Origin: Oligoflexales bacterium | GTDB taxonomy: Bacteria; Bdellovibrionota_B; Oligoflexia; Oligoflexales; Bog-1112 | Direction: 5' to 3' | NCBI GenBank assembly: GCA_045106415.1 | Contig: JBGCEP010000001.1 | Coordinates: 15,522-79,521, forward strand | DNA: 64,000 nt | In this document: positions 1 through 54,778 of the stretch, in pieces | Layout of the letters: each line of letters starts with the position of its first letter | How positions within the stretch are numbered: position 1 is the first letter of the stretch | Translations under genes and position numbers: made by a program | Notes under the pieces: generated by a model | Told to the model about the DNA's origin: nothing | The model's input: the letters and a program-made list of their open reading frames with translations, nothing else | Database searches by the model: none

Positions 1-240
1 ATCCTTACTTTTTTATCAAAAATAAGCTACCCAATATATCTTAGCCACCTTACTATTTATATAGCACTTCAAAAATCATTCACTTTTCAAAGTCACATAA
101 AACTTGGATACATCGCATCATTAGTGACAATTTTAGTAAGTTACATCATTCATAGGTATATAGAAAAACCTGGTATCAAAGGTTCTGCTTTACCATCTAC
201 ACTAACAATTCAAAACATTAACAATAAAGTCCACCATTGA
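1..240 (+). CDS. C-terminal fragment of acyltransferase-3 (OafA-like) membrane O-acyltransferase, truncated by window edge
   Basis: Not in the ORF track. Frame 1 reads ILTFLSKISYPIYLSH...SYIIHRYIEKP...*, matching the family motifs (ISYxxYLxH; s-y-xx-ExP). Confidence 0.75.
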   Translation: MLTFLSKISYPIYLSHLTIYIALQKSFTFQSHIKLGYIASLVTILVSYIIHRYIEKPGIKGSALPSTLTIQNINNKVHH

Positions 241-940
241 CATGCAGCGTTGCACCTGTAATATATTTTGCTTTTTCAGAGCATAAAAAAGCCACAGCGT
301 TTCCAACGTCCTCAGAAACACCCCATTTTTTCAATGGAATATTTTCTTTAACTTGTTCTTTAATAGAATCAGAAAGATTTTTCGTCATATCTGTTTCAAT
401 AAAACCTGGAGCAACAACATTACTTCTCACACCAAAAGAGGCCATATCTTGCGCGACAGATTTTGAAAAACTCTCAATTGCACCTTTGCTTGCTGCATAG
501 ATAGACTGCCCAGGATTTCCTTTGTGTGCTACAACTGAAGAAATATGAACAAAGCACCCTGTTTTTTGTCGAATCATTTGACGAGATGCATACTTACTCA
601 ATAAAAATGTTGATTTTAAATTCGTAGTCATCGTTAAATCAAAATCTTCTGGCTTCGCCATTGGAAGTATTTGATCTCGACACATTCCAGCATTATTGAC
701 CAAGACATCGATGCGTCCATATTGCTTCTTAATGTTCTGAATCAATTGTTCACATTGCTCAGTATCTGAAAGATCTGCTTGCATAGCACTACCGCTTATA
801 CTCTCAGCCACTTTACAAGCTAGAGCTTCATCACTCCGATAATGAACAACAACAAAGTACCCTTCTGAAGCGAGAATCTCTGCACATGCTTTACCAATCC
901 CTCTTGAGGCACCTGTCACCAACGCTATTTTTTGACTCAT
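218..940 (-). CDS. fabG: 3-oxoacyl-ACP reductase (SDR)
   Basis: TGASRGIG, NNAG, GNPGQSIYAASK, PGFIETDMT, LHVNGG. ATG at 940 follows a GGAG SD. Confidence 0.9.
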   Translation of the reverse strand: MSQKIALVTGASRGIGKACAEILASEGYFVVVHYRSDEALACKVAESISGSAMQADLSDTEQCEQLIQNIKKQYGRIDVLVNNAGMCRDQILPMAKPEDFDLTMTTNLKSTFLLSKYASRQMIRQKTGCFVHISSVVAHKGNPGQSIYAASKGAIESFSKSVAQDMASFGVRSNVVAPGFIETDMTKNLSDSIKEQVKENIPLKKWGVSEDVGNAVAFLCSEKAKYITGATLHVNGGLYC

Positions 941-4408: not shown

Positions 4409-7303
4409 TTAAAACTGGCTGCCCACCGTCAGTTCAAATTGACCACGGCAATACCAATCACATTCTTTTGCTCGTGAAAAACAGATTCCTTCTTCAATAC
4501 ACCTTTTCGTTTGAGGTTCTTTCCAGGGCCATGCATAACCAAGGTTCACAGCACCTAACGGACTCAAAAAGTTCACAGCAACACCATATGAAAGATAATG
4601 CCGACTTAATAAATAGCCAGGTTTCCATAATAGTTCTGAAAACGAATAGTTAACATTATCTTCCATCGAATATATTCTCTCACGGTCATCACTTAAACCC
4701 ACAGTTTGTGAGAGCTCTCGACCAAAACGCTCTACTTCCTGATCAGAGAAAAAGACATTCCCACTATCAAGAAAAAAAGAACTGCCCCAAAGCTCAGATA
4801 ATTGAATACGGGCTTCCGTTCGAAACAACGATCTTTTGGCGCCGCCAATAACTTGTGGAATTTCATCATCAACAGGAACAAACTCTCCTGACTCTCCTTG
4901 CTCTCTCACCTGCGTCCTAATATAAGGGCCCAATTGATGCTCAAATCCTCTTACTCGGCCGGAACCACCAGCAAACAACCGTAATGTTGTAGGAAGAATA
5001 TCAACATCACCCATCCAGTTATATGCTGAGAGCGCACCACTCACACTCCATACAAACTTTGGTAACACTTCATAAAACCACGCAGCAGATAATGACCAGA
5101 AACCGAAACGAAAATCACTTCCCCAAGCTGGATTTGACAAACTCATTTGTGCTGACAACACACCTCCTTTTGTTGTCCAGCTAACATCATCTCTGAGGTC
5201 AAGCTTACCTCTCACTCCAATATCGGCAATTTTCGCATTTCCAGAAGAAATTGCCAAAAGCTGTTCTTTAGAGCCTCTATCTCGCGTAATTTGATACGCA
5301 TAATAAAGACCGATTTCTGAAGAGGGATCATTCAACCAAATTTTATGGTTTAAGGCCATCTCTCCTGTTGTTGAAATTTTCCAAAATTCATCAGCAACTT
5401 CTTTATGTGAAAGGGAAAGTTGGCCATCAATAGGGTAGTCCAAAAGATAGGGTTCCACGTATCCCAGACTTATTTTCTTACCCAGAAGACTCCGACCTCG
5501 TTCATCACCTCTTTGGTCAACAACTTCTTGGTTCAGCTCTTGGCTCAATTCGCCACGCAAGCTCACCGTTCTTGCTCGCCCACCAATATTTTTATAAGTC
5601 CCTTCAAATCCGTACAACAAACCACGGCGGATATGATAACCCGGCCCGAAACGAACATCGCCAGGATCACTCTCTTGAACCTGGATAGTGACATCTAGCT
5701 CATTAGGTTTCATCGCTAGAACGCCATAACGAGTAGGTGTAATTTGTACATAACGAAAAAGGCCTAAACCAATAAGAGCTGCCCGCGATTCTAATATATT
5801 TTCAGGGTTATAAAAATCACCACTCTTAAATCTCAATTCTCGACGCACAACACTTTCTTCTGTACGAATAAGACCTAAAATACGAATCGAACCAACATAA
5901 ACACGCACACCAGGATCAACCTTAAAAACAACAACTGTTTCAATCCGCTGCCCTCCGAACCTATGTTTTAATACTGTCGAAACCGTTGTTTTTAAATAAC
6001 CAAGATTAATCAATTCTCGACGCAACTCCGTTTCTGCATCAAGTAGAGCTGTACGGTCAAGAGCACTTTGTTTTTGAACTTTAAAATGCTTTTGTAACGG
6101 CAACCCATCAAAACCTTCTATCTTTGCGTCTTCTAAAACATAACGAGGCCCTTCATCGATTAAGATAACAACGTTAGCTGAAGCCGTATTTTCTTCTCGT
6201 GTAATACGAGGAGGTCGAATTTTCACATTCCAATAACCTTGACGTCGATAAAACTCCTTTAAAGACTCAACTCCTTCATTAAGATCATCTCGATTTAAAG
6301 CAATACTGCTTTCCCAGACGCTTTGAAGCCCCATAACATCAATCATCTCTTTTCTTGAAAATTCAATCCCACCCTCAAATTGAATATCACCCAATGTGTA
6401 GCGAGCCCCTAAACGGATCACAAACGTATGCCGAACAGTTTGATCGTCTGGGCGTGAAGTTTGAGGTCCCGTCACTTGAACATCTTCATACCCTTGATTC
6501 ACATAAATGCGAGTTACTTCTGATGCTATGGACTCAGGTTCAATAAGGGCTGGATCAAGCTCATTCAATGCATCATCGCGAAAAATCTGATCCACAGAAA
6601 GAGATGTTCGCTCTTGACGAAACTCCACCTCAACTCTGACACCAAGCTCGCCTTCCACTCGAACATAGCCTTTTGTTTTATTTCTATCGAAAGACATTGG
6701 CCTTACATTCAAACGTACACGGTGATAACCCGCTGTCCTTAAATCTTGATCAAGGCGATCGACAGCACTTTGCACTTCTTTCAAATCACATAAACTTTTT
6801 TCTTTTAAAGAAAAAACTACACTATCAGGGAGTGGAAAAGGCAGAGAAATCGAGGCAATTTCACACGGAGCTCCTTCATGGACAGTCACTTCATAATCCA
6901 CAACATGGGGCTTAATCTTTTTAACAACAACACCTACTTTGACATGAGGGTACCCTAACAGTTGTAAAGCCTGGATCGCCGCACTCTGAAACTCTTCACG
7001 TACTTCATCATTTTCCACAACCCCAATAAACTGCCGCCTAACCCCTAGTAAAGATCTCCTCAAATCTCGAGTCACAGCTGTAATATGAATTTTACGGATC
7101 ACAGAAGAAGGCTTTATTTCAGCAGACCATTTACCATCCTCATAATACAATTCACCAGAGCTCAAATTCTGCGATACAGCCTTTTGTCGCAAAAAAGAAC
7201 TACCTTGTTGGGCATTTTGAATATGACTTTGAACTTCAGAAAAAATATTTTGAGTAAACATCAGACATAAAAGAAGAACCCAAGTATTTTTTAGGTTATT
7301 CAA
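4409..7303 (-). CDS. Omp85-family (BamA/TamA-like) outer-membrane assembly protein with POTRA domains
   Basis: POTRA-like repeats (IRTEESVVRREL...LGLFRYV), barrel motif FAGGSGRVRGF, SPLGAVNLGYA, terminal Phe. Start uncertain: TTG 7303 at the tamB stop is preferred over 7378. Confidence 0.9.
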   Translation of the reverse strand: MNNLKNTWVLLLCLMFTQNIFSEVQSHIQNAQQGSSFLRQKAVSQNLSSGELYYEDGKWSAEIKPSSVIRKIHITAVTRDLRRSLLGVRRQFIGVVENDEVREEFQSAAIQALQLLGYPHVKVGVVVKKIKPHVVDYEVTVHEGAPCEIASISLPFPLPDSVVFSLKEKSLCDLKEVQSAVDRLDQDLRTAGYHRVRLNVRPMSFDRNKTKGYVRVEGELGVRVEVEFRQERTSLSVDQIFRDDALNELDPALIEPESIASEVTRIYVNQGYEDVQVTGPQTSRPDDQTVRHTFVIRLGARYTLGDIQFEGGIEFSRKEMIDVMGLQSVWESSIALNRDDLNEGVESLKEFYRRQGYWNVKIRPPRITREENTASANVVILIDEGPRYVLEDAKIEGFDGLPLQKHFKVQKQSALDRTALLDAETELRRELINLGYLKTTVSTVLKHRFGGQRIETVVVFKVDPGVRVYVGSIRILGLIRTEESVVRRELRFKSGDFYNPENILESRAALIGLGLFRYVQITPTRYGVLAMKPNELDVTIQVQESDPGDVRFGPGYHIRRGLLYGFEGTYKNIGGRARTVSLRGELSQELNQEVVDQRGDERGRSLLGKKISLGYVEPYLLDYPIDGQLSLSHKEVADEFWKISTTGEMALNHKIWLNDPSSEIGLYYAYQITRDRGSKEQLLAISSGNAKIADIGVRGKLDLRDDVSWTTKGGVLSAQMSLSNPAWGSDFRFGFWSLSAAWFYEVLPKFVWSVSGALSAYNWMGDVDILPTTLRLFAGGSGRVRGFEHQLGPYIRTQVREQGESGEFVPVDDEIPQVIGGAKRSLFRTEARIQLSELWGSSFFLDSGNVFFSDQEVERFGRELSQTVGLSDDRERIYSMEDNVNYSFSELLWKPGYLLSRHYLSYGVAVNFLSPLGAVNLGYAWPWKEPQTKRCIEEGICFSRAKECDWYCRGQFELTVGSQF

Positions 7304-10300
7304 ATGAAAAACGGAACCGTAAATTTGCTTCGACACTTTGTCCCGTTTGTGCATTCTCAACATCTCCACCGACATCATCTTCCGTGGTGCTATAATTCAT
7401 CGATGTAGAAACACTTTCATGCAGAGGCATTTCTGCAGATACTGTCCAACCTTTTTGACCACCTCGAATCACAACATCTAAGTTCTTCGAAAGGTTGAAA
7501 GTCCCGTTTAACCGCGGGACAGGAAGACCTGCTTTATCAGGTAAAGTATCTATATACAGGTGAAAAAAGTTTTGACCTGTAAGTTCAGCAAGTGTTTCAA
7601 GTGGTTGCTCAAGTTGACTTAACACTAAGTTAAGCGCTTCACTACTAGCTGTAGATCCCACGACGCTACGCGTCCCACTTGGCAAGCTCCCCTTAGACAA
7701 TAACACGATAATATCCAAAGGCGCTAAAACACTACCATCTTCTCTCGTTGGAGGGTCAGCAGTTAACTGGACATCCAAATCTGCCACATTACCAGTTGCT
7801 GCAATTGTGACTTGATATGGAGCCACATCAGCAACAGCAATGACATCAAGCGTGGGTAATGAAGAAACAGTATCATCAAAAACAAGATCTCCGCGAATGA
7901 ACTCAAATTCTCTTTTGTAGATCAACTTGCCTTTGTTAACATATACATGCCCATTTAACACCGGTTGACTATTCATTCCTTGAATCGTCAACTCTGCTGA
8001 AAGAATCATTTGTAAGTTTCTGTTCTGTACATAAATACTTTTATCTGCTTTCACAGCCACATCAAAACGGAACAATGGATCTGCATCAACTTCATGCCCC
8101 CTTAGTCTTTGCTGTCCGACTGATTGGGCTATTTCATCCCTCAAATCAAACTGATGCGCTGTACGCCCTCTTTCCACTTGTATCTGACCTGTTACATCAA
8201 AAGGTCTTTTTCCACTAAGGTGCAGATCACCCGAAAAAGTTCCTTCAAAACTCTTAAGAACTGGCACTGTGAAAATAGCTTGCGCATGCTGAAAACTTAA
8301 ATCCAAGTCACTCGAGGGGCCCTCTTCCCCTAAGTTCACACGCCCCGACGCAGTCACAAACCCTGATCCTTTGCGTGCTTTAAATGACTGTACTTGTAAA
8401 ATATTTTGATCCAAAACAGCTTTAAACATGACCCCTCTAAACATCGGACGTAAAAAAGGAAGACTCAAACTGACTTCAGGATCTGTTTTTTCTGTCCAAA
8501 TTACAGATCGGACCTGAAGATTTTCAAAAGGGCCAGTTAATGTCGTTTTTGCGTGAATAACTCCAGAACCACTCTCCACATAACGGCTCATATCAGCTAC
8601 AGGAGCAAGCTCAACACGGGAGACAAGTTCAATACCAAAATGATCTGGAGGACGATGATTTGTGAGCTGAATACTGACCTGCCCCCCCGAACCCGCGATG
8701 ACTAGAGGCTGATGATTCTGTGTTCTCCACCCCTGCTCAGAAAACACAATTCTCATAGGGTGTAGGTTCGTAGCTTCTAAAACTCTGTTTTCACTGCCTA
8801 GATCTCTAGCGTAATGAAGCTGTACACCTTCAACGGATAACAGCCCCTCAGAGGCCCACCACGATTTCAAGTTTCCTTTCATTTCCCAGTCTGCTGTTAG
8901 GTATGCAAAATTTCTAGGATCTTGATGAAAAGCCTCAGGAAAGCCGCTTCTCATGTCAAAACGGTCTAGCCTTACATACCACTTGTATGGAAGGCCTGGT
9001 TCAAACAACTCCACGGCCATACGACCGTTTAAAGCTCGCCCTGCATGCTGCACCGTCAAGTCAAGGTGGCCACCTTCGACAAACCCTGTCATTTGCCAAT
9101 TTGCTGATAAAGCTCCATTTACAGCCAGCTCACTCACCTTTGCTTTCATTGTCCCTTGTAAACTTAAAAGATTCCCTTCTAAATTCACCTCAAAAGATGG
9201 CTGACCTACTAATTTCGCTTTTTTTGCAAAATCTCCCAAAAAGGGCAAACGTTCAAGCGTTGGCCCTCGACCACGACCTGAAACTTTTTTCGATTCAGCC
9301 TCAATTTTCACTTTCGAAGCAAGAGATAACCCTAATCGTTCCCACAGAGAATGATGAGGACCAAGGAAAGGTTGTAAAGTATGAGCAGGTCTTTCTAATG
9401 ATACCTGACTAAAAACACCTAATGTGCCCAATTCAAAACGTAATGATTTTGAAGCCCAACCTTTTTTGGTTCCTTGAAATTCAAAATGAAAATCGTCGCA
9501 AAAATAATTTTCTTCTGTAAAAACTTCTCGGCCTGAAGCTTCAATCTTTCCTGTCATTGCCAATGGAAAAAGTAATGGACCCTTCACATCAAGTTTTGCT
9601 GAAACAATAGAAGCCATCACAGGCAATTCAACCCAGTGTGCAAGCCCCCTATATGTCGGTTCAGGAAGATGAAATACATTAAGTTTTCCCGATAACCATA
9701 AATCCTTAATACGCAAAGAACCCACAGAGGAATCATAATGCCCGCTTGACCAACGACCTTTTAAATTTCTCCATGATAAAAGATCTTCTTCAAAAGAAAA
9801 TTCACTCGACCAGCTTCCTAAATCTATCCCAGAAATAATAGAGTCCTGAAATTTTAAGGACCCATCAACACGAACTGGGTGCTCAACATTTCCATGCACA
9901 TGAAAATCTATCTCACCAGCTCCACTCAATGGAGCTGGAAGATATGCAGCAAACAGGCCTGGTCCAAGATCTTGCATCTGAACTTTAACATCCATTTTTT
10001 TGTTATATTCTACAAGTCCATTCAACGTAAGATATGTTGAGGAATCAGGATCAGGATCATGACCCTTCGCTCCAAAGGTCTGACATTGTGCTGTCGTTTC
10101 ACCAAACTGAAAAGAGGAGCTGTCTGCATGAAAATCAAGATTAACATCACACTCTGGAGCAAGCCCTAAACCAAATTTCTTAATTTCTTTAAAATCAATT
10201 TCTTTCATTTTTAAATGCGATGAAGCATATAATTCAAAAGGTTCCATTTTTCCATGAATCAAGACATCTTTGTCGTCAAGCTGATGAAGATTCGCGTCAA

Positions 10301-11450
10301 ACACATGAAAATCAACCTGAAGAGCATCCATTAATGTTGACAGACGAATCCCTTGAGGGGAGGCATGAAACCGAAACTCACCAAGACCTTTTGTTTCAAT
10401 CACTCCATTTATATCAAGGGTATTCTTCCCATCTACAGAAACTTTTAATTGCCTTAGTTTTAATTCATTATCGTAAAAAGATAACCCTCCACTCACGTCA
10501 TGAAGATAAAATCGGTCTAAATACGCATCACTCACATGAAATCGGCCATCAATTGTAAGTTGAGATGCTTCTTGATCTGTTGCTGTTAAAACTTCGACAC
10601 GAGCATCAATTTGAGCTTGACCACGCGTGGTTCCAATATCTAACCAAGACCCTAAAATAGATAAATTGCCGACTCCACGTATATCATTTGCAATCAGAAA
10701 TCCTTGATCTTTACCACCTGTTGTATGTTCTAACTTTCCTTGAACATCCAACCTTGGTGCTTTCAATTCCCACTGCCCTTTCCCTGTCCCATCATAGTGA
10801 ATAAGTCCTTCTGCAGAAACGGAAGCTCCTTCCACCATCGATGCTTCTTCTGTTTGCATATGAAAATGCTCAGACCGTAAAATATACTTTAAACCCTCGG
10901 ATGAAAAAGCCAGTTCTCCAGAAAGTTTTTTTGTTAAAAAAACATACCATTCTCCTTCTTTTCTGTTTTCTTTATCATGTGGAGTTTCAAAGGAGAGCTC
11001 TAAGTGATCAAGATAAATTTTATGAATAGGAAGCAGAATTGGTTTAAAAGGTTCTTCTTTTATAGCGTTTTTTGAAGATGGTGTCTCGTTATCTTGAAGC
11101 AATGGCTTTTGATGATAGCTTACACCATCGATTGTTATATCCAAAAAATGCGGACTTCCCATCGCAAGAGCCCACCAAACGATGGAGACAGAAGATTTTT
11201 CAATAGTGACAATTTTTTCTTTTTCAGAAAAAAGAGACAAATGCGCTACTTCAAACTTAAATGGGAAAAAACGGAAATGAATATTTTTAAATTGAACTCC
11301 TAAACCAATCTGAGGTTCAATTTCTTTGGCGACAATACCTCGAATAACCTGTTCTGTTGGTTGTGAATTCAATATAAAATGAAAAAATGTATGCAAACCT
11401 ATAATTAAGGCGCTGCCAATAAAAAATTTTTTCCATAAACCACGGTTCAT
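7296..11450 (-). CDS. tamB: Translocation and assembly module TamB (AsmA-like, DUF490 C-terminus)
   Basis: 1384 aa with N-terminal TM anchor, beta-rich repeats and C-terminal NLRFRFSFE. Adjacent to the Omp85 gene. Confidence 0.85.
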   Translation of the reverse strand: MNRGLWKKFFIGSALIIGLHTFFHFILNSQPTEQVIRGIVAKEIEPQIGLGVQFKNIHFRFFPFKFEVAHLSLFSEKEKIVTIEKSSVSIVWWALAMGSPHFLDITIDGVSYHQKPLLQDNETPSSKNAIKEEPFKPILLPIHKIYLDHLELSFETPHDKENRKEGEWYVFLTKKLSGELAFSSEGLKYILRSEHFHMQTEEASMVEGASVSAEGLIHYDGTGKGQWELKAPRLDVQGKLEHTTGGKDQGFLIANDIRGVGNLSILGSWLDIGTTRGQAQIDARVEVLTATDQEASQLTIDGRFHVSDAYLDRFYLHDVSGGLSFYDNELKLRQLKVSVDGKNTLDINGVIETKGLGEFRFHASPQGIRLSTLMDALQVDFHVFDANLHQLDDKDVLIHGKMEPFELYASSHLKMKEIDFKEIKKFGLGLAPECDVNLDFHADSSSFQFGETTAQCQTFGAKGHDPDPDSSTYLTLNGLVEYNKKMDVKVQMQDLGPGLFAAYLPAPLSGAGEIDFHVHGNVEHPVRVDGSLKFQDSIISGIDLGSWSSEFSFEEDLLSWRNLKGRWSSGHYDSSVGSLRIKDLWLSGKLNVFHLPEPTYRGLAHWVELPVMASIVSAKLDVKGPLLFPLAMTGKIEASGREVFTEENYFCDDFHFEFQGTKKGWASKSLRFELGTLGVFSQVSLERPAHTLQPFLGPHHSLWERLGLSLASKVKIEAESKKVSGRGRGPTLERLPFLGDFAKKAKLVGQPSFEVNLEGNLLSLQGTMKAKVSELAVNGALSANWQMTGFVEGGHLDLTVQHAGRALNGRMAVELFEPGLPYKWYVRLDRFDMRSGFPEAFHQDPRNFAYLTADWEMKGNLKSWWASEGLLSVEGVQLHYARDLGSENRVLEATNLHPMRIVFSEQGWRTQNHQPLVIAGSGGQVSIQLTNHRPPDHFGIELVSRVELAPVADMSRYVESGSGVIHAKTTLTGPFENLQVRSVIWTEKTDPEVSLSLPFLRPMFRGVMFKAVLDQNILQVQSFKARKGSGFVTASGRVNLGEEGPSSDLDLSFQHAQAIFTVPVLKSFEGTFSGDLHLSGKRPFDVTGQIQVERGRTAHQFDLRDEIAQSVGQQRLRGHEVDADPLFRFDVAVKADKSIYVQNRNLQMILSAELTIQGMNSQPVLNGHVYVNKGKLIYKREFEFIRGDLVFDDTVSSLPTLDVIAVADVAPYQVTIAATGNVADLDVQLTADPPTREDGSVLAPLDIIVLLSKGSLPSGTRSVVGSTASSEALNLVLSQLEQPLETLAELTGQNFFHLYIDTLPDKAGLPVPRLNGTFNLSKNLDVVIRGGQKGWTVSAEMPLHESVSTSMNYSTTEDDVGGDVENAQTGQSVEANLRFRFSFE

Positions 11451-13343: not shown

Positions 13344-14483
13344 TTAAAGTTTCTCAAAGAGCTCAATCGCTTCTGTGACAGCTTGAAAAGAACCACAAAC
13401 TGCAAATTCTTTAATTCCTTGCCTCTCGAGCAGAGCCCACTGCTCAGAAAAATTTGCCTTATAGTTTTTTCGGGTGCAACGTGCAGACCGCGTTGAAAAT
13501 GGCAATAAAAATGATGCCACTTGTTTTAACGATTCTAAAATTCCTGCTTCATCTTTATCATCTAAAATCGAATATAGCACAGGGATTTTATGTGTTTTAT
13601 TTTTTAAATAATCAGCAAACACCTTAGCTGCAGCAGGATTATGACAAACATCAATCCAAATTTTTCTTCCATTCCTTTGAAGTTTCTCACACCTTCCACG
13701 ATAAAAACTAGCAGATGTCGATGCTTCAAATTGATCAGAACACACTGTATAACCCAATAGTTCAACAGCATGACAAGCCAAATCATAACTTTTTTGCAGA
13801 TGCACAGGAAGCGTTAAAACAGAAGGTGGTTTTAAATATACGTCTGTATGAATCAAATCAAAACCAATACGGCGTCTTTCTTGCTCAAGCACTTCATTAA
13901 GCTCAGCCTTTTTTTCACCCCACAAAAGTGGTTTTTCAAGGCGTGCAATTCCAAGCTTTTCTTTTGCAATATCAGCAATATGATTCCCTAACCATTCTTG
14001 ATGATCTAAATCGATCGAAGTCACTATTGATATATCTGCATCTAAAGCGTTTGTCGCATCAAGCCTCCCCCCTAACCCCACTTCCCACACAACGACTTCA
14101 CAGCCACTATTTTTAAATAACCCCATACCAATAAGTACAGAAACTTCGAAAAAAGAAAGTTCTTCATAAACATGATCTGGAAGAGATTTTTTAAGTTCTT
14201 TCCACACATTCTCGACTTCTGAAATCGTAATCACCTCATTATTCACTTGAAATCGTTCCGAAAAACATGACAAATGAGGTGAAGTGAAAATTCCTATCCG
14301 AGCCTGAGACTGTAGTAATTTCCATAAGTAAGAGACAACAGTTCCTTTACCATTCGTACCTGCTACTAATATATTTATATGCTCATTAGGTTTCCACCAT
14401 TTTAGCGCTTCACGCACAGTTTCTATCCCTGGGCGTATATGCGTTGAACGTTTTGAAAAAAGATCTTCGACCCATGAAGACAT
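13344..14483 (-). CDS. folC: Dihydrofolate/folylpolyglutamate synthase
   Basis: VAGTNGKGTV, FTSPHL, EVGLGGRLDATN, DLDH, DVCHNP. Confidence 0.92.
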   Translation of the reverse strand: MSSWVEDLFSKRSTHIRPGIETVREALKWWKPNEHINILVAGTNGKGTVVSYLWKLLQSQARIGIFTSPHLSCFSERFQVNNEVITISEVENVWKELKKSLPDHVYEELSFFEVSVLIGMGLFKNSGCEVVVWEVGLGGRLDATNALDADISIVTSIDLDHQEWLGNHIADIAKEKLGIARLEKPLLWGEKKAELNEVLEQERRRIGFDLIHTDVYLKPPSVLTLPVHLQKSYDLACHAVELLGYTVCSDQFEASTSASFYRGRCEKLQRNGRKIWIDVCHNPAAAKVFADYLKNKTHKIPVLYSILDDKDEAGILESLKQVASFLLPFSTRSARCTRKNYKANFSEQWALLERQGIKEFAVCGSFQAVTEAIELFEKL

Positions 14484-14677
14484 CTCACACCTCACCAGTT
14501 AAGATGCCATTCTTTTAACAAAAACAAAAAGAACCGGATAGTTTCTTATGACGAATTTAAAAAAACATAAACTCTATTCTACTTGTACAGGAAAACTCTC
14601 AAGGTACATTAGCATCCATTTTCTCAGAGGATCTGGAACTTGATCATGACTATTTGGCATAAGAGAACCATTGCACA

Positions 14678-15665
14678 TATAACATTGGCTACACTTATTT
14701 ACTCAACACCTTCATAGCCACACAAACAGCATCATAAATAGAGTCACATCCATCTATGAGAATTTTTCGTATTTTTGTTTTAACTTGATGCCACTTGTGT
14801 TCGATAGGATTGAGATCTGGACTATATGGGGGGGGAAGATATAGAACTTCTGCTCCATAATCTTGAGATATTTGAACTATATCTGAGGACTTATGAAATG
14901 AAGTATTATCAAACACAATAACTGTATTTCCATCCAAATGTGGGATTAAAACCTTCTCAAGATACGCATTGAAAACCTCTGCTGTACAACTTCCTTTAAA
15001 TACAAATGGAGCAATAATTTCGTTATGGTTGTTGAGTGATCCAATGATATTAACAGCTTTATGTTGTGAACTTTCTTTTAAACCATGGAGCCTGGAACTT
15101 TTATGACTCCATCCATGTTGACAGGATTCATTTTTCTTAACGCCACACTCATCGAGATAAATAATGTTTTTATCACTTTTATTATTTATTTCCTTTTGAA
15201 AGTCACTCCGATTTTTATCGCAGCGATTTTTGTATCCAAATGTTTTTTTATTTGTAAAACCGATAAGCCGCAAGTATCGACGAATACTCCGTGGAGAAAT
15301 ATCCCCCCCAAGCTTGAGCCATTTCTTCGGAACTTCTATCAGGTTTTTCTTCTACAAATTTTTCCAAGTCTTGAATTTTACCTGGTCTCTATTTACGTTT
15401 CCGTGGTTTCAGAGAGCCAGTCTCTGTCATTTTCTTTTTCCAATTATAGATTGTTTTACGAGCGATATTGATAGCCAGATTCTATCGCATCAATCACTTT
15501 ACTCTGCAAGTCTAATGAGTATAACTTAGGAGTGTTAATTCCAAACATTTGATAAAACTAGGAATAACATACTAAACTTATAAGATAAAATCACGTCTCT
15601 CGAATTCAAGTTATAAGGGGAATAGACCCACTCTGGGTGAGCAAATAAAATCAGCCAATGCTATA
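14678..15665 (-). mobile_element. IS630-family insertion sequence, degenerate
   Basis: Imperfect 28-bp terminal IRs TATAACATTGGCTACACTTATTTACTCA / TATAGCATTGGCTGATTTTATTTGCTCA (22/28) beginning with TA, enclosing a DDE transposase. Confidence 0.88.
14695..15530 (-). pseudogene. IS630 transposase pseudogene
   Basis: DDE part is open (YLDECG, FDNTSFHKS, YSPDLNPIEHKW). The HTH part PKLYSLDLQSKVIDAIESG / NIARKTIYNW is broken by frameshifts, an in-frame TAG and a G7 slip. Confidence 0.85.
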
Positions 15666-15760
15666 TCACAATAAATGACCGACGCTGTTAATGTTCTGCA
15701 AGTCATCGCCCGTGGCAACATCTTTATATAAAACGTTAAATTTCAAACCGAATCAGTATA
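15666..15760 (-). repeat. 95-bp dispersed repeat, copy A (probable left end of a second IS630-like element)
   Basis: 81/95 identical and ungapped to the reverse complement of 63895-63989. Begins TATACTGAT on the minus strand. Confidence 0.85.
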
Positions 15761-16009
15761 GTAGGGATTTATCTTTCTTTTATTTGCAAATTTTTTAGGT
15801 CAATATGGAATAAAGATAACTCTAGGGTCGTTTTTTAAATCCAGCTGAAAACATAGGGGTATAGAGGCGGTACTCATGAAACTTGTTAAGTTTTGAGTAT
15901 TGTTTGAGTGAAGGTCACTTGATCGCAATGAGAGCAGCCTATATGTTAGCCTTTTCGAAATTTCTAAAGATATGAAGAGTGATTCAAAAATGTCAGAAAC
16001 TTTAAAAGC

Positions 16010-16900
16010 ATGGATGAACAAATGAACTGTGATGTTTCGTGCTCTCAGCAGAATCAAGCACAAGTATTGGCAGGGAGTGCTCCCTCTCAAAAAAGACAAT
16101 GGTTTATTGAAATACCTCAGCCGTGGCCGAGACAGGTTTTAGCAAGCTCTTATTTGCATGCTCAGGTTTTACTAGCCTTGCAGCACGCTGTTCGTTCTAA
16201 GATCTCAGTATATGGATTTTGCGGAGAAAAAACTCGTGTTGGTGCTAAAAAAATAAGACTTATAGATGCATGGAGTGAGGGAAATGGAGAAGGAAAGCAT
16301 CAGCATTATGAGATTTCAGCTCAGGAATCTGTAGAGTGGTTTCAAAGTCTTCTTCATAATCCAGAGGGAGTGGCGTCTTATCGGAAGGACCAAGTGGGTC
16401 GAGATGTTTTTATTTGTACACATGGCCAAAGAGACCAATGCTGTGGAGTTTTAGGTGAAGAAGTATATGTTAAATATAGCCATTTAGCTTCAAATGATCT
16501 AAGGATTTGGAAGGTGAGCCATCTCGGTGGTCATCGTTTTGCTCCTACATGGTTGGAATTACCAGAAAAATTGTGGTGGGGACGAAGTGATTTTGACGCA
16601 GTTGTGACTCGGACTGGGCAACCGTGGAAGTCTTTACGAGGACGTTCAATGTTATCTCCTCGAGCTCAAATTTTAGAAAGAATGATGCTAGAACAATACG
16701 GATGGCCTTGGCTGGATGTTGCAAAAAATGCTTCTTATCAAGAAAGTGGAAATGATATTGAAGTCACAGCTCCAGGATTGAAAGCGTATGCAGAAATTTT
16801 ATGTCTTGAAAGTTTTCAACCTGTGAGTTGTGGGCAGGCTGCAAAAAGCGTCAAAGAGTACGAAATTGTAGAGTGTCAAATAGGGAGTTTTGAAGTTTGA
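16010..16900 (+). CDS. Sucrase/ferredoxin-like (thioredoxin-like 2Fe-2S) protein
   Basis: ICTHGQRDQCCG and WKVSHLGGHRFAPT motifs. Confidence 0.85.
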   Translation: MDEQMNCDVSCSQQNQAQVLAGSAPSQKRQWFIEIPQPWPRQVLASSYLHAQVLLALQHAVRSKISVYGFCGEKTRVGAKKIRLIDAWSEGNGEGKHQHYEISAQESVEWFQSLLHNPEGVASYRKDQVGRDVFICTHGQRDQCCGVLGEEVYVKYSHLASNDLRIWKVSHLGGHRFAPTWLELPEKLWWGRSDFDAVVTRTGQPWKSLRGRSMLSPRAQILERMMLEQYGWPWLDVAKNASYQESGNDIEVTAPGLKAYAEILCLESFQPVSCGQAAKSVKEYEIVECQIGSFEV

Positions 16901-19475: not shown

Positions 19476-19516
19476 CTTCCTATGACCCCTCATTTACGAG
19501 GTCGTAGGAGAAAGTT

Positions 19517-21868
19517 ATGAGAATCAATAAACAAAAAGGGGCAAGTCCTATTGTTATGGCCTCTTTGGTGGCAGTTCTTGGTTTTATTGCAACTGAGGGT
19601 GCGAGAACTTTTTCCAAGCAAAGTCAGGATGTGTCCCGCAGAGCTGTTGATGGTGTGCAAATGCAAGCAGCAAATGAATCTTCAATGGAGCTTTTATCCC
19701 AACTTGTAGGCGCAACCGTTTTAAAGTTGGACTCAGGGAGCTCGAAGTTTTCATTGGGGGATGGTTTAGGTGGGAAATTTAAAGTCGATAGAACTCCGAG
19801 TGTTGATGGCTGGTCGTTAGATGCTCAAGGAGCCTTTGTGACTCAGGCGTGTCTATCCTCAAATCTTGGTGTTGATTCGAGTCTTATTTTTGGTGATGAT
19901 AAAGGAACAACCTGGCTGACAGGGCATGACTGTCCAAAAACATCCATTGTGACAACAACAATTGTCCCTAGAAGTAGTGTTGATGCAGATAAAGTCTCAG
20001 GCGCTCGTGCTAATAGTTATGCAATTGTGGATACAAGCACTGTTAACAGTGAAGGGCGAAAATTAAATCGTTTTGCTCGCTTGACACTGCCAGAACCAAC
20101 GATTCAATGTGATGTTGTGAGTGATGACAATAGTGAGCACTGCCAAATTGATCATTGCCCTTATATGAAGCCAGTTTTAAATAATAAAACTGGTGATGTT
20201 TTATATAAAACGGATGCTTCTGGTGCTTTAGTGCCTCTTTTGCAGCCTAATGAGAATTTTATCTCAACGATAAGAGTTCCCTCAAAGATGTTGCCAACAT
20301 CTTTGAATGGGTTGTCGGTGAAATATACTCCTGGCCGTGATCAAAAACCAACACAACTTGCTAGTTTTTTGAATAGTGCATTTAAGCCGGGTAGAATTAA
20401 TCCTTTTGATGGTGTTCAAGGAGTGGGTGGGGAGCTTCAATCACAAGGTGCTCAAGATTTAAAAAGAGTTGGATCTTATATTGAAATTGCTGTCCCAAAT
20501 AAAGCTGCAGCTATAGATGCTAGCAAGTTGCTAGTTTTTGAAGGTTTTTTGCAGGATGGAAGCAGAACGAGCTATGGTAGCAATGCCCGAGGCTGGAAAA
20601 CTAATACGCCTTTTGACGATAAGAGGTACCGTTCAAATCTGCAAAATGCTTGTGCAGCAACTCTTTATCGGCCATGGGGATTAAGAAGCCCTAGTCCATA
20701 TCCAGATTTTTGTGCTCGAGCCATTTTAACTTATGCTTACAATACTTATACTTATTCTGCAATTCGAAAATGTCGTTATTATGGTCCAGCATTAAGAATG
20801 AGCAGTGACCCTAGTGGCATGAAAAATTGGTATGCGACCGAGCAAAGGCATTCTCAAACAGACTGGGTCGCATCATCGAAAACAGAAGAAGGATATACTA
20901 CCGTATCGAGTTCTTTAAAACCTTATGTTGACTCTCAAGTTCATCACGATTTTGATAATAGTGATCCTCAAGGTTTTTCTTTACAAAGGCATGACTTCAG
21001 TGATGTCTTAGTTGGGGAATTATCTGTTTTAGAAGTGAAAAAGTTTGACAATCCGGATTATGTTGTTGATGAAAAAGGAAAACCTGTTGATAATAATGTT
21101 CCTCAATTTTTATGGAAAGAGAGAACTTTAAATAGAAGTTGGGACGCAAGTTGTAGCCAAAGAGACCTGAAAGATAATGAAAACCCTCCAAACTTTAAGC
21201 CACCTACAAATGTGCTTGATAAGTGCTTTTATATTGAATATCAAAATGCTGGAAACCGTCTTGAGTGTACTCGTCGCGTGAGTGCTATTAATTGCCGAAA
21301 CGGTAATGGCTGTTTTACAGCAGATACTCCTGTGATGATGGCAGATAGATCTATGAGGATGATCTCAGATATTCAAGAGGGTGAAAAAGTCTTCAACCCT
21401 GTGACGCAAGTGGGGGTCAAAGTCGTAAGTGTGACAAGTGGTCCTCAAGAACGAGAAATGTATAGAATTACAACTTCTGGAGAAAAGACTGTTACAGCAA
21501 CTTGGAACCACCCATTTCAAACACCAGACGGTTTTTTTAGAGCATATCAGCTTGAAGAAGGTGATCGTGTGATGGATGCCAGAGGTTTTTGGCAAGATGT
21601 TGTAAAAATTGATGAAGTGGCTTATCAAGAAGGAGAAGTTCGTCAGGTTTGGAACTTAACCTTGGAGGGTCCGTCTTTTGGTAATCCTGGTTTTGTGGCA
21701 GCAAGGCAGTTTGTAGCAAACGGCTTGGCAACAGGTGATTATGTGATTCAAGAGTCTAATCTGAGAGAAGTGAACCAACAGCTTAAGAATGGGCAACAGC
21801 TTTTAAAAGTCAGTGGAGGAGGCTCAATGTCTTTTGAGCGCCCACTTGAATTTGAATGGGCTCGTTAA
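19517..21868 (+). CDS. Prepilin-like (PilX/GspK-type) protein with C-terminal Hint domain
   Basis: N-terminus KQKG|ASPIVMASLVAVLGFIA. Hint motifs G|CFTADTPVMMAD, TATWNHPF, VWNLTL, FVANGLATGD. Confidence 0.8.
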   Translation: MRINKQKGASPIVMASLVAVLGFIATEGARTFSKQSQDVSRRAVDGVQMQAANESSMELLSQLVGATVLKLDSGSSKFSLGDGLGGKFKVDRTPSVDGWSLDAQGAFVTQACLSSNLGVDSSLIFGDDKGTTWLTGHDCPKTSIVTTTIVPRSSVDADKVSGARANSYAIVDTSTVNSEGRKLNRFARLTLPEPTIQCDVVSDDNSEHCQIDHCPYMKPVLNNKTGDVLYKTDASGALVPLLQPNENFISTIRVPSKMLPTSLNGLSVKYTPGRDQKPTQLASFLNSAFKPGRINPFDGVQGVGGELQSQGAQDLKRVGSYIEIAVPNKAAAIDASKLLVFEGFLQDGSRTSYGSNARGWKTNTPFDDKRYRSNLQNACAATLYRPWGLRSPSPYPDFCARAILTYAYNTYTYSAIRKCRYYGPALRMSSDPSGMKNWYATEQRHSQTDWVASSKTEEGYTTVSSSLKPYVDSQVHHDFDNSDPQGFSLQRHDFSDVLVGELSVLEVKKFDNPDYVVDEKGKPVDNNVPQFLWKERTLNRSWDASCSQRDLKDNENPPNFKPPTNVLDKCFYIEYQNAGNRLECTRRVSAINCRNGNGCFTADTPVMMADRSMRMISDIQEGEKVFNPVTQVGVKVVSVTSGPQEREMYRITTSGEKTVTATWNHPFQTPDGFFRAYQLEEGDRVMDARGFWQDVVKIDEVAYQEGEVRQVWNLTLEGPSFGNPGFVAARQFVANGLATGDYVIQESNLREVNQQLKNGQQLLKVSGGGSMSFERPLEFEWAR

Positions 21869-22515
21869 GAGGTTGTGATCTGATGCTGTGTTTAAAAAAC
21901 CTTAAAGAAAAGTCTAAAAAAAACTTTTCTTTAAGGTTTTTGTTGAGGGTTGCAATTTTTTTCCTTAGCTCTCCAGTGCAAGGAGGGTATCATTGGGTAT
22001 TGCCTTTCTGTGCCAATGATCACAAAAATCAAACTTTTCTTTTCAGTGAAAATGCTTGTGGTTTGCAAGAGTGTCGTGTTTTAACGAGTGGTGATCAGGG
22101 TTTAAATAGAGCAGTCACAAATACTTTAGGTACTCATAATACAGCACATTTGATTGCGAATAATGAAAAAAATAAAGAAAAAATACATGTCATAAAAAAG
22201 TTCAATGATCAGAAAAGTGAAGAGAAAGATTTTTTATTTGCGCAGATGAAACTGCCAACACTTGATCTTGCGTGTGAGAAGACAAGTGATTGTCATGCGG
22301 TGGGCATTGGTGTGTCCCCATGCGGTGGCCCTATTCGTTACGAAGTATATTCTTCTTTAAGAAAGAACGAGCAAGATGCTGAAGATTTTCAAAGAAAAAT
22401 TGAGCAGTACCAGATTCTGATGCAAAAGCGCGCTGTGGGGTCTTTTGGTGTGTGCATTATGGTGTTGCCTCCTCAGGTCTCATGTGTCGCGTCAGTGTGT
22501 CAGGTTGTTCATTAG
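21856..22515 (+). CDS. Cys-rich hypothetical exported protein
   Basis: C-terminal domain ACEKTSDC...SPCGGPIRYEVYS...CIMV...SCVASVC. Start uncertain. Confidence 0.6.
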   Translation: MGSLRGCDLMLCLKNLKEKSKKNFSLRFLLRVAIFFLSSPVQGGYHWVLPFCANDHKNQTFLFSENACGLQECRVLTSGDQGLNRAVTNTLGTHNTAHLIANNEKNKEKIHVIKKFNDQKSEEKDFLFAQMKLPTLDLACEKTSDCHAVGIGVSPCGGPIRYEVYSSLRKNEQDAEDFQRKIEQYQILMQKRAVGSFGVCIMVLPPQVSCVASVCQVVH

Positions 22516-24439: not shown

Positions 24440-24979
24440 TTATTTCTTTTTCTTAGATTGTTGAGAATCTTCAGTGGGGTCCTGCGCAACAGACTGGTTG
24501 CGGGAGTAGGCGAAGACACTGATAACAGCTGCTAGAGCACCAACGACTGTTGCAAAAGCTCCCCCTTCAATTTTGAGCAAATATGTGGTGTACATAATTG
24601 CACCGATGGTTGCGAGCCCACAAAAATTCCCAGCTATGTTACCGAATATATTGTAGATAAGATTCATCCAATCTCGTCTAGTGACTTTTGAGCTCTGAGC
24701 ATGATTATTCCGATCCAGGCGGTCATGGTTTCTCTTTTGGTCTTCTCTAGTAATCATATGCTGATGCTCTTGCTCTTTTTTCATCATGTTTATGATGGCT
24801 TTGAACGATTCTGGGTCGATTGCTTCTACAGTCTGCAGAAGCTCAGGAGAAACAGAAGTATTGTAGAAATTGATTTGATTGTTTTGCGTGTTATGGACGA
24901 TAGGTGTTTTGTCATCTGTGGATGCAGATTGAGAGCTCTTATTCTGATCTTTTGGTGGTTGACTCGGTTTTTTGCTCAT
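24440..24979 (-). CDS. DUF2335-like membrane protein
   Basis: SPELLQTVEAIDPESFKAIINMMKKEQEHQH followed by two TM helices. Confidence 0.65.
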   Translation of the reverse strand: MSKKPSQPPKDQNKSSQSASTDDKTPIVHNTQNNQINFYNTSVSPELLQTVEAIDPESFKAIINMMKKEQEHQHMITREDQKRNHDRLDRNNHAQSSKVTRRDWMNLIYNIFGNIAGNFCGLATIGAIMYTTYLLKIEGGAFATVVGALAAVISVFAYSRNQSVAQDPTEDSQQSKKKK

Positions 24980-25157
24980 CTAGATACTTCTCACAGCTGT
25001 GCAACAATTGTCCGTGTATGATCCTAGCAGACAATTCAAGATTGTTACAATATTGTGTCTCGTAGATGATCGGAAGGTCATCACTCTGGTTTTTGAAGTG
25101 CAGACGAGAAGGAGTGTGAAACATTTGTTTCAAACTTTCAACGAGATGATGTCTCAT
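24939..25157 (-). CDS. Small hypothetical protein upstream of the DUF2335-like gene
   Basis: Strong AAGGAGGA SD before ATG 25157; overlaps the next gene. Confidence 0.55.
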   Translation of the reverse strand: MRHHLVESLKQMFHTPSRLHFKNQSDDLPIIYETQYCNNLELSARIIHGQLLHSCEKYLDEQKTESTTKRSE

Positions 25158-25390
25158 ATGTCCTCCTTTATTTGCAGTGTGTAGTGTAGCACACATGTCT
25201 ATATGATCGTCCAAAACGAGCAACAGCATTAGATGTATCGCGTCGCTGATCTTATTGTCAATGAAATTAGAGAGTTATTCTGAGATATCAAACGTTTACC
25301 TCTTTCTTGAATCAGGTGAAATTGGTGTCCTTGCCGGATAAGGTGCTGAGGAGGTGGATCTTTGATTTTGTCGTTTTTGGTTTATGTGGC

Positions 25391-25597
25391 TTAGGCCTCC
25401 TCTAGGAGGTCTTGGATGGCTGTATCCAGAACTTCGGAGGTCGATACATTGCGTCGCTTGCAAAGCTCTTGAAATGCTCTGTAGGGCTTTTCTTCGAGGT
25501 ACAGAGTGGTTCTGATCTTATGGGATGGTTGCTCATTTTTTCTTAGAATATCCCGCGCACGTTTGAGGTTCGTTTTTTTCTTGGTGATTTTTGTCAT
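25391..25597 (-). CDS. Ribbon-helix-helix DNA-binding protein
   Basis: KIRTTLYLEEKPYRAFQELCKRRNVSTSEVLDTAIQDLL is an RHH pattern. Confidence 0.75.
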   Translation of the reverse strand: MTKITKKKTNLKRARDILRKNEQPSHKIRTTLYLEEKPYRAFQELCKRRNVSTSEVLDTAIQDLLEEA

Positions 25598-25620
25598 AGT
25601 AAATCTCTCAATCAAATAGG

Positions 25621-25641
25621 ACATAACATATTATGTTATGT
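25621..25641. promoter_or_regulatory. Palindromic operator between divergent regulators
   Basis: Perfect ACATAACATA-T-TATGTTATGT inverted repeat. Confidence 0.6.
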
Positions 25642-25735
25642 TTTTTGTTGCCGAGTATGGGAGGATTTTTCCCAGAAATGGAAAAGTCATTTTCAGAGTA
25701 AGGAGTCTAGGCTTTAATAGCGGCTGCTTTTCTCA

Positions 25736-26059
25736 ATGATGTATGCTGGGAGCCACGTGGAGACGGAAAAAGATAGAAATGACAGTATTGGGCGTCGTCT
25801 GCAACTCGCTCTGCAAGAAGCTGATATTAGTTTGACTCATGCGGCAAGTATTGCAGGTGTCAGCACAAGCACACTCTGTAACTGGGTTTCAGGTTGCTCT
25901 CCTTGGAATTTTGAGGCGCTTGACCGTCTTTGTGAGCACTTGGGTGTATCAATGGCATATCTGTTGACAGGAAAGCAAGATAGGTTCCATCGAGTGAAAG
26001 GCTCTTTTGATGGGCGAGCTAAATTGTTTTGGTTAATTCCCGCCGACAATCATGACTAA
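25736..26059 (+). CDS. XRE-family (HTH_3) repressor
   Basis: IGRRLQLAL...SLTHAASIAGVSTSTLCNWVSG...LCEHLGVSMAYLLTG. Confidence 0.85.
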   Translation: MMYAGSHVETEKDRNDSIGRRLQLALQEADISLTHAASIAGVSTSTLCNWVSGCSPWNFEALDRLCEHLGVSMAYLLTGKQDRFHRVKGSFDGRAKLFWLIPADNHD

Positions 26060-26139
26060 TTCCAGATATGGAAAACCTTTTAATTCAAATATACCGCGGT
26101 TCGAACAGAAGCATTGTGTATTAGAATTGGGAGAAAGAT

Positions 26140-52063: not shown

Positions 52064-52214
52064 GTTAACCTCAAAGGTGAATAGATGGAGAAATCATATC
52101 ATTCTTTGTTATTTTTTTTCAAATCTATGGTGAGTTTTCTTCTTTACTTTAAGATAAGTAGTTTTTTTTCACAGGTTGTGATTTGATGAAGGTGAATTTG
52201 AGAGAAGGTTTAGC

Positions 52215-54664: not shown

Positions 54665-54778
54665 AGTAAAAATAGTAAGGTAGAGACTCGCTTAAAGTAC
54701 CAATATATTTTTGAATATTTGGTTTTTTAGAAAAAATCGCTTAAGATAGACTTGATCTATCTATAGTCAGGTGCTTAT

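Follow-up and report, generated by a model that had tools for sequence, protein, structure and literature searches.

A candidate minor pilin of an Oligoflexales bacterium that ends in a predicted self-cleaving, intein-like Hint domain

Hint domains are known as inteins, as Hedgehog processing domains, as toxin-releasing modules and as bacterial intein-like domains (BILs). A third BIL type is said to have been described in predatory bacteria (Bdellovibrio) by Dori-Bachash and colleagues in 2009, and it is reportedly C-terminal and self-cleaving; the Bdellovibrio lineage has traditionally been grouped with the Oligoflexia. On the side of pili, absence of Glu5 is a known trait of GspK/PilX-type tip pilins, and GspK, among GspI/J, and PilX, among PilV/W, are each the largest member of their set, lack Glu5 and are encoded between two pilins that have it. 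BIL types A and B are distinguished by their ends: type A BILs end in His-Asn and have no +1 nucleophile and type B BILs lack block G similarity (Mills, Johnson and Perler 2014, PMC4031507); the same review adds that an Asp or Gln in place of the terminal Asn is also able to cyclise. Here we analyse a stretch of 64,000 nucleotides from an Oligoflexales bacterium (assembly GCA_045106415.1, contig JBGCEP010000001.1, positions 15,522 to 79,521 of the forward strand; the whole stretch is called the window below) and describe in it the gene of P0001, a protein with a pilin-like N-terminus and a C-terminal Hint domain.

The coding sequence of P0001 (19517..21868, with the ATG start given in the list of open reading frames [ORFs]) comprises 783 codons plus stop and lies, like all its features below, on the plus strand; a Shine-Dalgarno-like AGGAGA read from the sequence (19506..19511) ends 5 nt before the ATG. 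The reading that we prefer, and to which we give about even credence, is that P0001 is a GspK/PilX-like, Glu5-less modular minor pilin of the tip type whose C-terminal BIL-type Hint domain cleaves itself at G598/C599. It builds on the architecture of the protein, its Hint fold, a conserved catalytic set, the location of Asp741 at the place of the terminal intein Asn and the pilin context of orthologous genes.

The Hint domain spans C599 to D741 (21311..21739; C599 is encoded by nt 21311-21313, and the codon of D741 ends at nt 21739) and is assigned by Pfam and NCBIfam profiles, fold and conservation. Its motifs are Cys1 in G598/C599-F600, the block B residues T662 and H665 in T662-W-N-H665, the block F residue N713 and the end A734-N-G-L-A-T-G-D741, in which G740-D741 replaces His-Asn. 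PT-HINT (PF07591) is the sole Pfam model to exceed its cut-off on P0001 (30.2 versus 27.7 bits), with Vint, Hom_end_hint, Hint (PF01079; 16.7 bits versus a cut-off of 29.7) and Intein_splicing all below theirs, and the NCBIfam model intein_Nterm scores 27.8 versus a cut-off of 24.5. An AlphaFold2 model of the domain plus tail reached a predicted local distance difference test (pLDDT) score of 88.1, and its top Foldseek matches (E 4e-12 to 9e-11) are Tetrahymena BIL2 (E 4e-12), the gp41-1 intein and a C. thermocellum BIL, while a profile search of the PDB is headed by 2lwy, annotated as "bacterial intein-like domain" (E 4e-15). VIA-align comparison of the full-length model gave a Z of 19.4 to 2lwy (root-mean-square deviation 1.4 Å over 131 residues), 18.5 to gp41-1 and 17.6 to Hedgehog 1at0, and the modelled Hint fold of C599-D741 is firm. 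In 13 VIA-align intein rows, C599 falls on intein residue 1 and the last intein residue on residues 740-742 (e.g., 1am2 0..198, 2imz 1..440, 1dq3 1..454 and 6riz -1..125, where we take residues 198, 440, 454 and 125 to be the terminal residues of these inteins). Because of this pairing, Asp741 stands in the model at the position of the terminal intein Asn, with Gly740 at that of the His. Behind it follows a tail of 42 amino acids (residues 742-783; 21740..21865) with a conserved Y-V-I-Q start, predicted helices at 742-746 and 749-766 and a low-confidence end (pLDDT <50 from residue 764).

The catalytic set of this domain is conserved across a family of relatives. Word-indexed protein searches returned 3 and 8 matches, too few for mapping the family, and our counts come from 68 module-bearing proteins collected in two rounds (27 and 41; duplicates L031-L033 dropped) and aligned with hmmalign. 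Although the domains of these relatives are only about 21-61% identical to that of P0001, Gly-1 is found in 66/68, Cys1 in 67/68 (plus one Ser) and Phe2 in 64/68; block B has Thr in 62 proteins, Ser in 6 and His in all 68; and the block F Asn, the penultimate Gly and the last Asp are each present in 66/68 (the last position is otherwise Asn in one protein and Ser followed by Asn in another). The recurrence of the same motifs in 68 relatives implies that those of P0001 are not chance. A block-G-like A-(N/D)-G-x-x-T-G-D is present in the family, and the fourth residue after the Asp is Gln in 68/68, but C, S or T occupies the +1 position in none of the 68 proteins (L, Y, W, F, N, H or M is found instead). 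The tail after the Asp varies from 10 to 58 amino acids (median 20.5), and its conserved part is limited to the first residues, h-x-h-Q. In 34/68 proteins another Cys lies at most 8 residues upstream of Cys1, 20 times at -6 (like C593 in P0001) and 10 times at -2.

Among 77 Hint loci of other phyla found in a genome scan, mostly long actinomycete proteins, 69 end in x-H-N and none in G-D..Q, with 8 ends outside the view, and a median of 129 amino acids follows the H-N. Because these loci mostly have the x-H-N end and a longer C-terminal sequence, the family of P0001 is, as judged by its motifs, a distinct Hint subtype without cargo; the comparison behind this statement was made with the definitions of type A and type B BILs and not with the BILs of predatory bacteria.

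This subtype is widespread in the phylum. A survey with the A1 profile (E <= 1e-8) found the module in 96/131 genomes, including 62/83 of high quality, spread over 16/19 families and with up to 12 matches per genome; the genome of the window itself has one P0001 paralogue that is 47-56% identical. The three closest named records in a genome scan are metagenome-assembled genomes labelled Oligoflexales, Oligoflexia and "Deltaproteobacteria ... BDEL_B". Sorted by their N-termini, partly by eye, the 68 module proteins are 48 of pilin type, 12 lipoproteins, 5 of Sec type and 3 unassignable (two of them cut by the end of the locus). The family is large and has hardly been described, and its shared domain forms the C-terminal end of numerous pilin-like proteins and lipoproteins. 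Because lipoprotein or Sec signals are present on 17/68 hosts, the Hint module does not depend on the pilus, and because all hosts are exported, the domain would work outside the cytoplasm, like that of Hedgehog. The module also seems to have stayed with its hosts instead of being shuffled often, since a quick maximum-likelihood tree needs 3 changes of N-terminal type (minimum 2) compared to a mean of 15.9 for shuffled labels, none of which was as low in 200 trials. For the Hint domain, the analysis agrees well with an earlier sequence-only reading of this DNA: the ORF, Cys1 in G/CF, TWNH and the ANGLATGD end that it had named are confirmed from the sequence, and the domain with a Hedgehog-like junction and no His-Asn that it had proposed is borne out by fold and relatives. 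Of the follow-up work that it had suggested, structure prediction recovered the Hint fold, the search for paralogues uncovered the phylum-wide family, and profile searches succeeded for Hint (PT-HINT and intein_Nterm) yet failed for prepilin motifs, while the helical tail of about 40 amino acids that it had described is correct in length and helical in its first half but not in its second.

Some further occurrences of the domain stand apart from these hosts. P0026 (1810 aa) and P0027 (1734 aa) are alpha-2-macroglobulin-like proteins (Pfam A2M families) in which the A1 profile also recognises Hint domains (E 5e-15 and 1e-12, respectively). Locus L112 (G048:C125) has tandem pilin-type Hint proteins on the minus strand (ORFs of 666 and 660 aa), a local duplication of the family. 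A secreted 162-aa protein in the genome of the window (contig C29, offset 53632, plus strand) matches the Hint profile weakly (E 6e-7); it lacks Cys1 and G-D..Q, has FFANGFLLKK at its end and could be what remains of a Hint domain after decay.

The N-terminus of P0001 reads MRINKQKG/ASPIVMASLVAVLGFIATEG, with Val and not Glu at +5 after the Gly. Its leader MRINKQKG (residues 1-8; 19517..19540) is short and basic and ends in Gly, which would place a putative prepilin-peptidase site at G8/A9, and together with the roughly 20 hydrophobic residues that follow (MRINKQKG/ASPIVMASLVAVLGFIA) it has the layout of a class III signal. The hydrophobic alpha-1N segment (residues 9-27; 19541..19597), identified from the sequence and likewise without Glu at +5, falls into a single helix of 56 residues (residues 10-65) that is followed by beta structure in a full-length model from a 20-row alignment (pLDDT 78.6). 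The remainder of alpha-1 and a beta head (residues 28-193; 19598..20095) are tentatively assigned a pilin-like fold from borderline VIA-align scores: residues 39-193 match GspI-type minor pseudopilins, namely EpsI (2ret_A, Z 7.2), GspI (3ci0_I, 7.1) and XcpV (5bw0_B, 6.7), and eight further pilins at Z 4.2-6.1, so that pilins make up 11/20 of the non-Hint rows. These matches suggest a pilin-like head in the model. Among the 48 pilin-type relatives, Glu5 was found by eye in only one (L024).

Between this head and the Hint domain lies a Cys-rich and beta-rich body (residues 194-598; 20096..21310; alignment A2) that ends in CRNGNG and holds most of the 13 cysteines of P0001 (residues 112, 139, 198, 209, 214, 379, 399, 419, 546, 570, 584, 593 and 599). 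Motifs of the body family in alignment A2 include C-x-(V/I/T)-D-H-C-x-(F/Y)-M-x-P, and no Pfam family was found on the body of P0001 or its relatives. The part in front of the Hint domain is rare, with an exhaustive HMMER search of residues 1-598 against 1.84 billion representatives giving 20 proteins at E <= 0.001, 10 of which reach E <= 1e-30. Residues 194-598 had no Foldseek or VIA-align match within the full-length model, a search that barely tested this part. An ESM Atlas search with the body peaked at 0.83, under the level of a lead (a PilX_N cluster ranked 12 at 0.82, and structure rows had TM <0.26), and was not used.

As far as the sequences of the loci can tell, gene context is the strongest support for reading P0001 as a pilin. 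At the orthologous loci L031, L032 and L033, the Hint gene is located between two genes for products of 257-334 aa that start with a basic leader, G-x4-E and a hydrophobic stretch, and the upstream one is also found at L128 and L137, with the Gly and Glu5 invariant in the 5 upstream pilins that could be aligned. Such a cassette has the GspK or PilX layout outlined above. TIGR02532 exceeds its cut-off on one of 8 neighbour pilins (L128, 28.7 versus 16.3), falls just under it on two (15.7 and 14.2) and does not match the other five. More broadly, a pilin-like ORF with G-x4-E stands in the flanks of 20/47 pilin-type loci compared to 0/17 lipoprotein- and Sec-type loci, counts that come from kin, not independent, genomes and from flanks of often only 0.4-3 kb.

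In the genome of the window, homologues of the flanking pilins are scattered on contigs C59 and C71. The C59 pilin matches four upstream pilins at E 1e-8 to 1e-27, and the C71 pilin matches the L031 downstream pilin (E 1e-9) and the L128 upstream pilin (6e-5) but neither the L032 nor the L033 downstream pilin. The same genome encodes one Peptidase_A24 prepilin peptidase, six T2SSE ATPases and three secretins over cut-off, and it has further Glu5-less pilin-like proteins inside pilin clusters. A complex prediction of the C59 pilin (residues 30-277) with P0001 (residues 28-200) gave runs that disagree (scores 0.65, 0.02 and 0.01). As a separate observation, contigs C31 and C39 encode paralogous Cys-rich proteins (489 and 460 aa) with Glu5-less pilin-like N-termini, hydrophobic C-termini and no Hint domain, of which the C39 copy sits in a cluster of canonical pilin genes.

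Several results weigh against the preferred reading. Hidden Markov models (HMMs) of the prepilin N-terminus (TIGR02532/PF07963), PilX_N and GspK (T2SSK) match neither P0001 (Pfam E <= 1) nor 26 relatives (E <= 0.05); relative L021 scores 17.3 with the prepilin N-terminus HMM versus a cut-off of 21.2, and PilX_N finds nothing in the whole genome. There are no pilin neighbours beside the gene in the window or its paralogue, the pilin fold was matched at a Z of about 7 when values below 8 are common among unrelated folds, and some relatives carry lipoprotein or Sec signals as described above. With regard to catalysis, block F has Asn where inteins carry Asp, and Cys599 must remain reduced outside the cytoplasm even though a nearby upstream Cys like those of the 34 relatives could tie it up.

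Most of these points would fit a protein that is not a pilin at all and has an ordinary signal anchor or Sec signal, being periplasmic or anchored in the inner membrane, with the Hint domain serving as a phylum-wide maturation tag without relation to pili. The missing HMM matches and pilin neighbours, the presence of the same module on lipoprotein and Sec hosts and the borderline fold matches all favour this explanation. We nevertheless regard it as improbable, given that a Gly directly precedes the hydrophobic stretch in 48/68 divergent relatives (partly by eye), that the orthologues are encoded between canonical G-x4-E pilin genes, that such neighbours are seen at pilin-type loci and never at the 17 controls, and that more than half of the non-Hint structural rows are pilins. 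The Glu5-less, pilin-like N-terminus of the sequence-only reading is thus upheld by the Val at +5, the long helix, the borderline GspI-type head and the neighbours of the orthologues, but finds no backing in HMM searches or in the gene's own neighbourhood.

If P0001 is a tip-type minor pilin as we prefer, its precursor would consist of a Gly-ended leader, a long alpha-1, a pilin-like head, a large Cys-rich passenger and the C-terminal Hint domain. The prepilin peptidase would cut at G8/A9, probably before the Hint domain acts. After export, an N-S acyl shift aided by Thr662 and His665 would move the G598-C599 bond onto the thiol of Cys599, and the resulting thioester would be resolved, by water as default, leaving a mature tip pilin with Gly598 as its last residue and, separated from it, 185 residues of Hint domain plus tail. 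The mature protein would then be incorporated at the tip of a pilus or pseudopilus. A disulfide of the C593 type may hold the precursor until reduction. The thioester step should not lead on to splicing, as the domain is followed by neither a +1 nucleophile nor cargo; the invariant Asp at the junction might serve as general base for the nucleophile that comes in or, with lower likelihood given the missing His, undergo cyclisation itself. From the missing terminal Asn, the sequence-only reading had concluded that the domain cannot splice, and this agrees with the lack of a +1 nucleophile and of cargo, whereas the invariant Asp at the Asn place keeps C-terminal cleavage possible. Such cleavage may be compatible with the sequence even with the assisting His missing, since there are inteins whose terminal Asn is replaced by an Asp that can cyclise (PMC4031507).

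It is unlikely, in our view, that the thioester takes another route and makes P0001 a self-ligating tip pilin, in which an amine, hydroxyl or thiol attacks the Gly598 thioester and the passenger becomes covalently attached. Candidate acceptors would be the head group of a membrane lipid, peptidoglycan, a lysine in a partner pilin or some target surface, analogous to the ligation of Hedgehog to cholesterol or of Tetrahymena BIL2 cargo to lysines. Such ligation is favoured by the Hedgehog-like G/CF junction with its conserved Gly-1 and by the placement of the Hint domain at the extreme C-terminus of exported, N-anchored hosts (48 pilin-type, 12 lipoprotein and 5 Sec), which is the layout of the Hedgehog precursor. 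The best Foldseek match, BIL2, joins its N-terminal flank to lysine amines (PMC8616854), and the invariant carboxylate of Asp741 next to Cys1 could activate a nucleophile. On the other hand, the analysis points to no acceptor, and the tail, short and variable beyond h-x-h-Q, offers no conserved recruiting region, contrary to the Hedgehog-style nucleophile-recruiting tail of the sequence-only reading; the prey surface that it had suggested as a ligation target has no basis either, as nothing in the analysis shows a predator. Hydrolysis is moreover the default fate of Hint thioesters, and cleavage products dominate in BILs (PMC4031507).

A generalised form of this idea appears similarly doubtful to us. 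The Oligoflexia Hint subtype, G/CF ... TxxH ... VYN ... A-N/D-G-x-x-T-G-D-h-x-h-Q, could be a self-contained C-terminal coupling device for exported proteins that needs no sortase or ATP and passes its thioester to an amine or hydroxyl, giving pilus-tip proteins and lipoproteins a second covalent anchor or a cross-link. If so, bacteria would have an equivalent of Hedgehog cholesteroylation that acts on the tips of type IV pili or pseudopili.

We consider it quite improbable that the domain cleaves on both sides or splices like a type A BIL, with Asp741 cyclising to cut D741/Y742 and the freed tail amine perhaps joining Gly598. Asp741 does stand at the place of the terminal intein Asn, one relative has Asn there, and the residues after the Asp are conserved, including the Gln found in all relatives; according to PMC4031507, Asp or Gln can take over cyclisation and type A BILs do not need a +1 nucleophile for splicing. 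Yet nearly all relatives have Gly at the penultimate position in place of the His that assists cyclisation, and it is hard to see what would be achieved by attaching a short tail, unconserved past its first residues, to the body.

A catalytically dead Hint domain that serves as a structural or binding module only, as the Asn for Asp in block F, Gly-Asp for His-Asn and the location of Cys599 in an oxidising compartment close to Cys593 might indicate, is very improbable because the N-terminal cleavage set (Gly-1, Cys1 and block B Thr and His) has been kept in 62-68 of the 68 relatives across all their sequence divergence. Release of a toxin as by PT-HINT domains was rejected since no cargo follows the domain.

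Next to the gene in the window, a 219-aa ORF (21856-22515, plus strand) begins within the Hint gene and shares its last 13 nt. The product of this ORF is hydrophobic at the N-terminus, contains numerous Cys and matches no Pfam family, and neither the remainder of the genome nor the fetched loci contain a homologue. A conserved partner gene at the Hint locus was rejected, since this downstream ORF lacks homologues and the neighbours of the paralogue are unrelated. At 24440-26060, DUF2335, ribbon-helix-helix and Cro/C1-type helix-turn-helix genes on both strands are possibly the remnant of a mobile element. The GC skew changes its sign in the region 14000-16100 (it is about -0.2 up to 14 kb and about +0.18 beyond 16 kb), which could mark the origin or the terminus of replication or else the breakpoint of an inversion, and this region contains a DDE_3 (IS630-like) transposase ORF (14695-15273, minus strand). 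The GC content falls to 0.29 at 52001-54000 within a surface-polysaccharide cluster (50681-55789) with Capsule_synth, a Wzy_C-like protein and a NeuB sialic-acid-type synthase. On the minus strand at 4412-11450, the gene of an Omp85/POTRA protein (989 aa) adjoins that of a TamB-like protein (1384 aa), an ordinary outer-membrane assembly pair of the TAM type.

The searchable literature, judged from listings and with supplements and subscription journals outside the scope, yielded no description of a pilin that carries a Hint domain. A Hint subtype fixed at the C-terminus of tip pilins in minor-pilin cassettes would add self-catalysed maturation to the biology of type IV pili and pseudopili, and if its thioester were passed to an acceptor, it would represent a new route of covalent surface-protein attachment for Gram-negative bacteria. 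The family is also a clean natural test of what an ending changed from Asn to Asp and from His to Gly does to Hint chemistry, and the compact Cys1/Gly-Asp domain might serve protein engineering.

Compared to the described Hint domains, that of P0001 fits, by its motifs, neither BIL type A nor type B. With the type A BIL of C. thermocellum (2lwy) it shares Cys1, TxxH, the V-Y-N of block F, the absence of a +1 nucleophile and variable secreted hosts, but type A ends in His-Asn (PMC4031507), whereas the P0001 family has Gly-Asp in 66/68 and always lies at the extreme C-terminus. It differs from type B BILs by the block-G-like motif, and the Hint_2 model reaches 14.7-27.3 bits in relatives compared to a cut-off of 28.4 and is not listed for P0001. 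Unlike inteins, the domain has no (His-)Asn end, which is Gly740-Asp741 instead, and neither a +1 nucleophile nor a C-extein. It resembles the PT-HINT domains of polymorphic toxins in the one Pfam model over cut-off, yet PT-HINT-type relatives of other phyla have the x-H-N end in 69/77 loci and a median of 129 amino acids behind it, whereas P0001 has a 42-aa tail and no toxin module. Among pilins, P0001 is similar to GspK/PilX tip pilins (GspK-GspI-GspJ, 3ci0) in its Gly leader, its Glu5-less alpha-1 and its position as the largest of a minor-pilin set, and to modular pilins (S. sanguinis PilB, 7b7p) in the large extra module grafted on a pilin, but differs from both as it has no match to T2SSK, PilX_N or N_methyl HMMs and a body without a listed fold match (in a search that barely probed it). 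Its top Foldseek match, BIL2 of Tetrahymena BUBL (6y75/6tmm), transfers its N-terminal flank to an amine (PMC8616854), but this domain has an Asn end (N143), lies between two ubiquitin-like domains and is cytoplasmic and eukaryotic. The Hog domain of Hedgehog (1at0) is followed by a conserved sterol-recognition region whereas the bacterial family of P0001 has a variable tail, but both share the same fold, the G/CF site, a secreted passenger in front, the absence of a terminal Asn and N-terminal cleavage only, as predicted for P0001.

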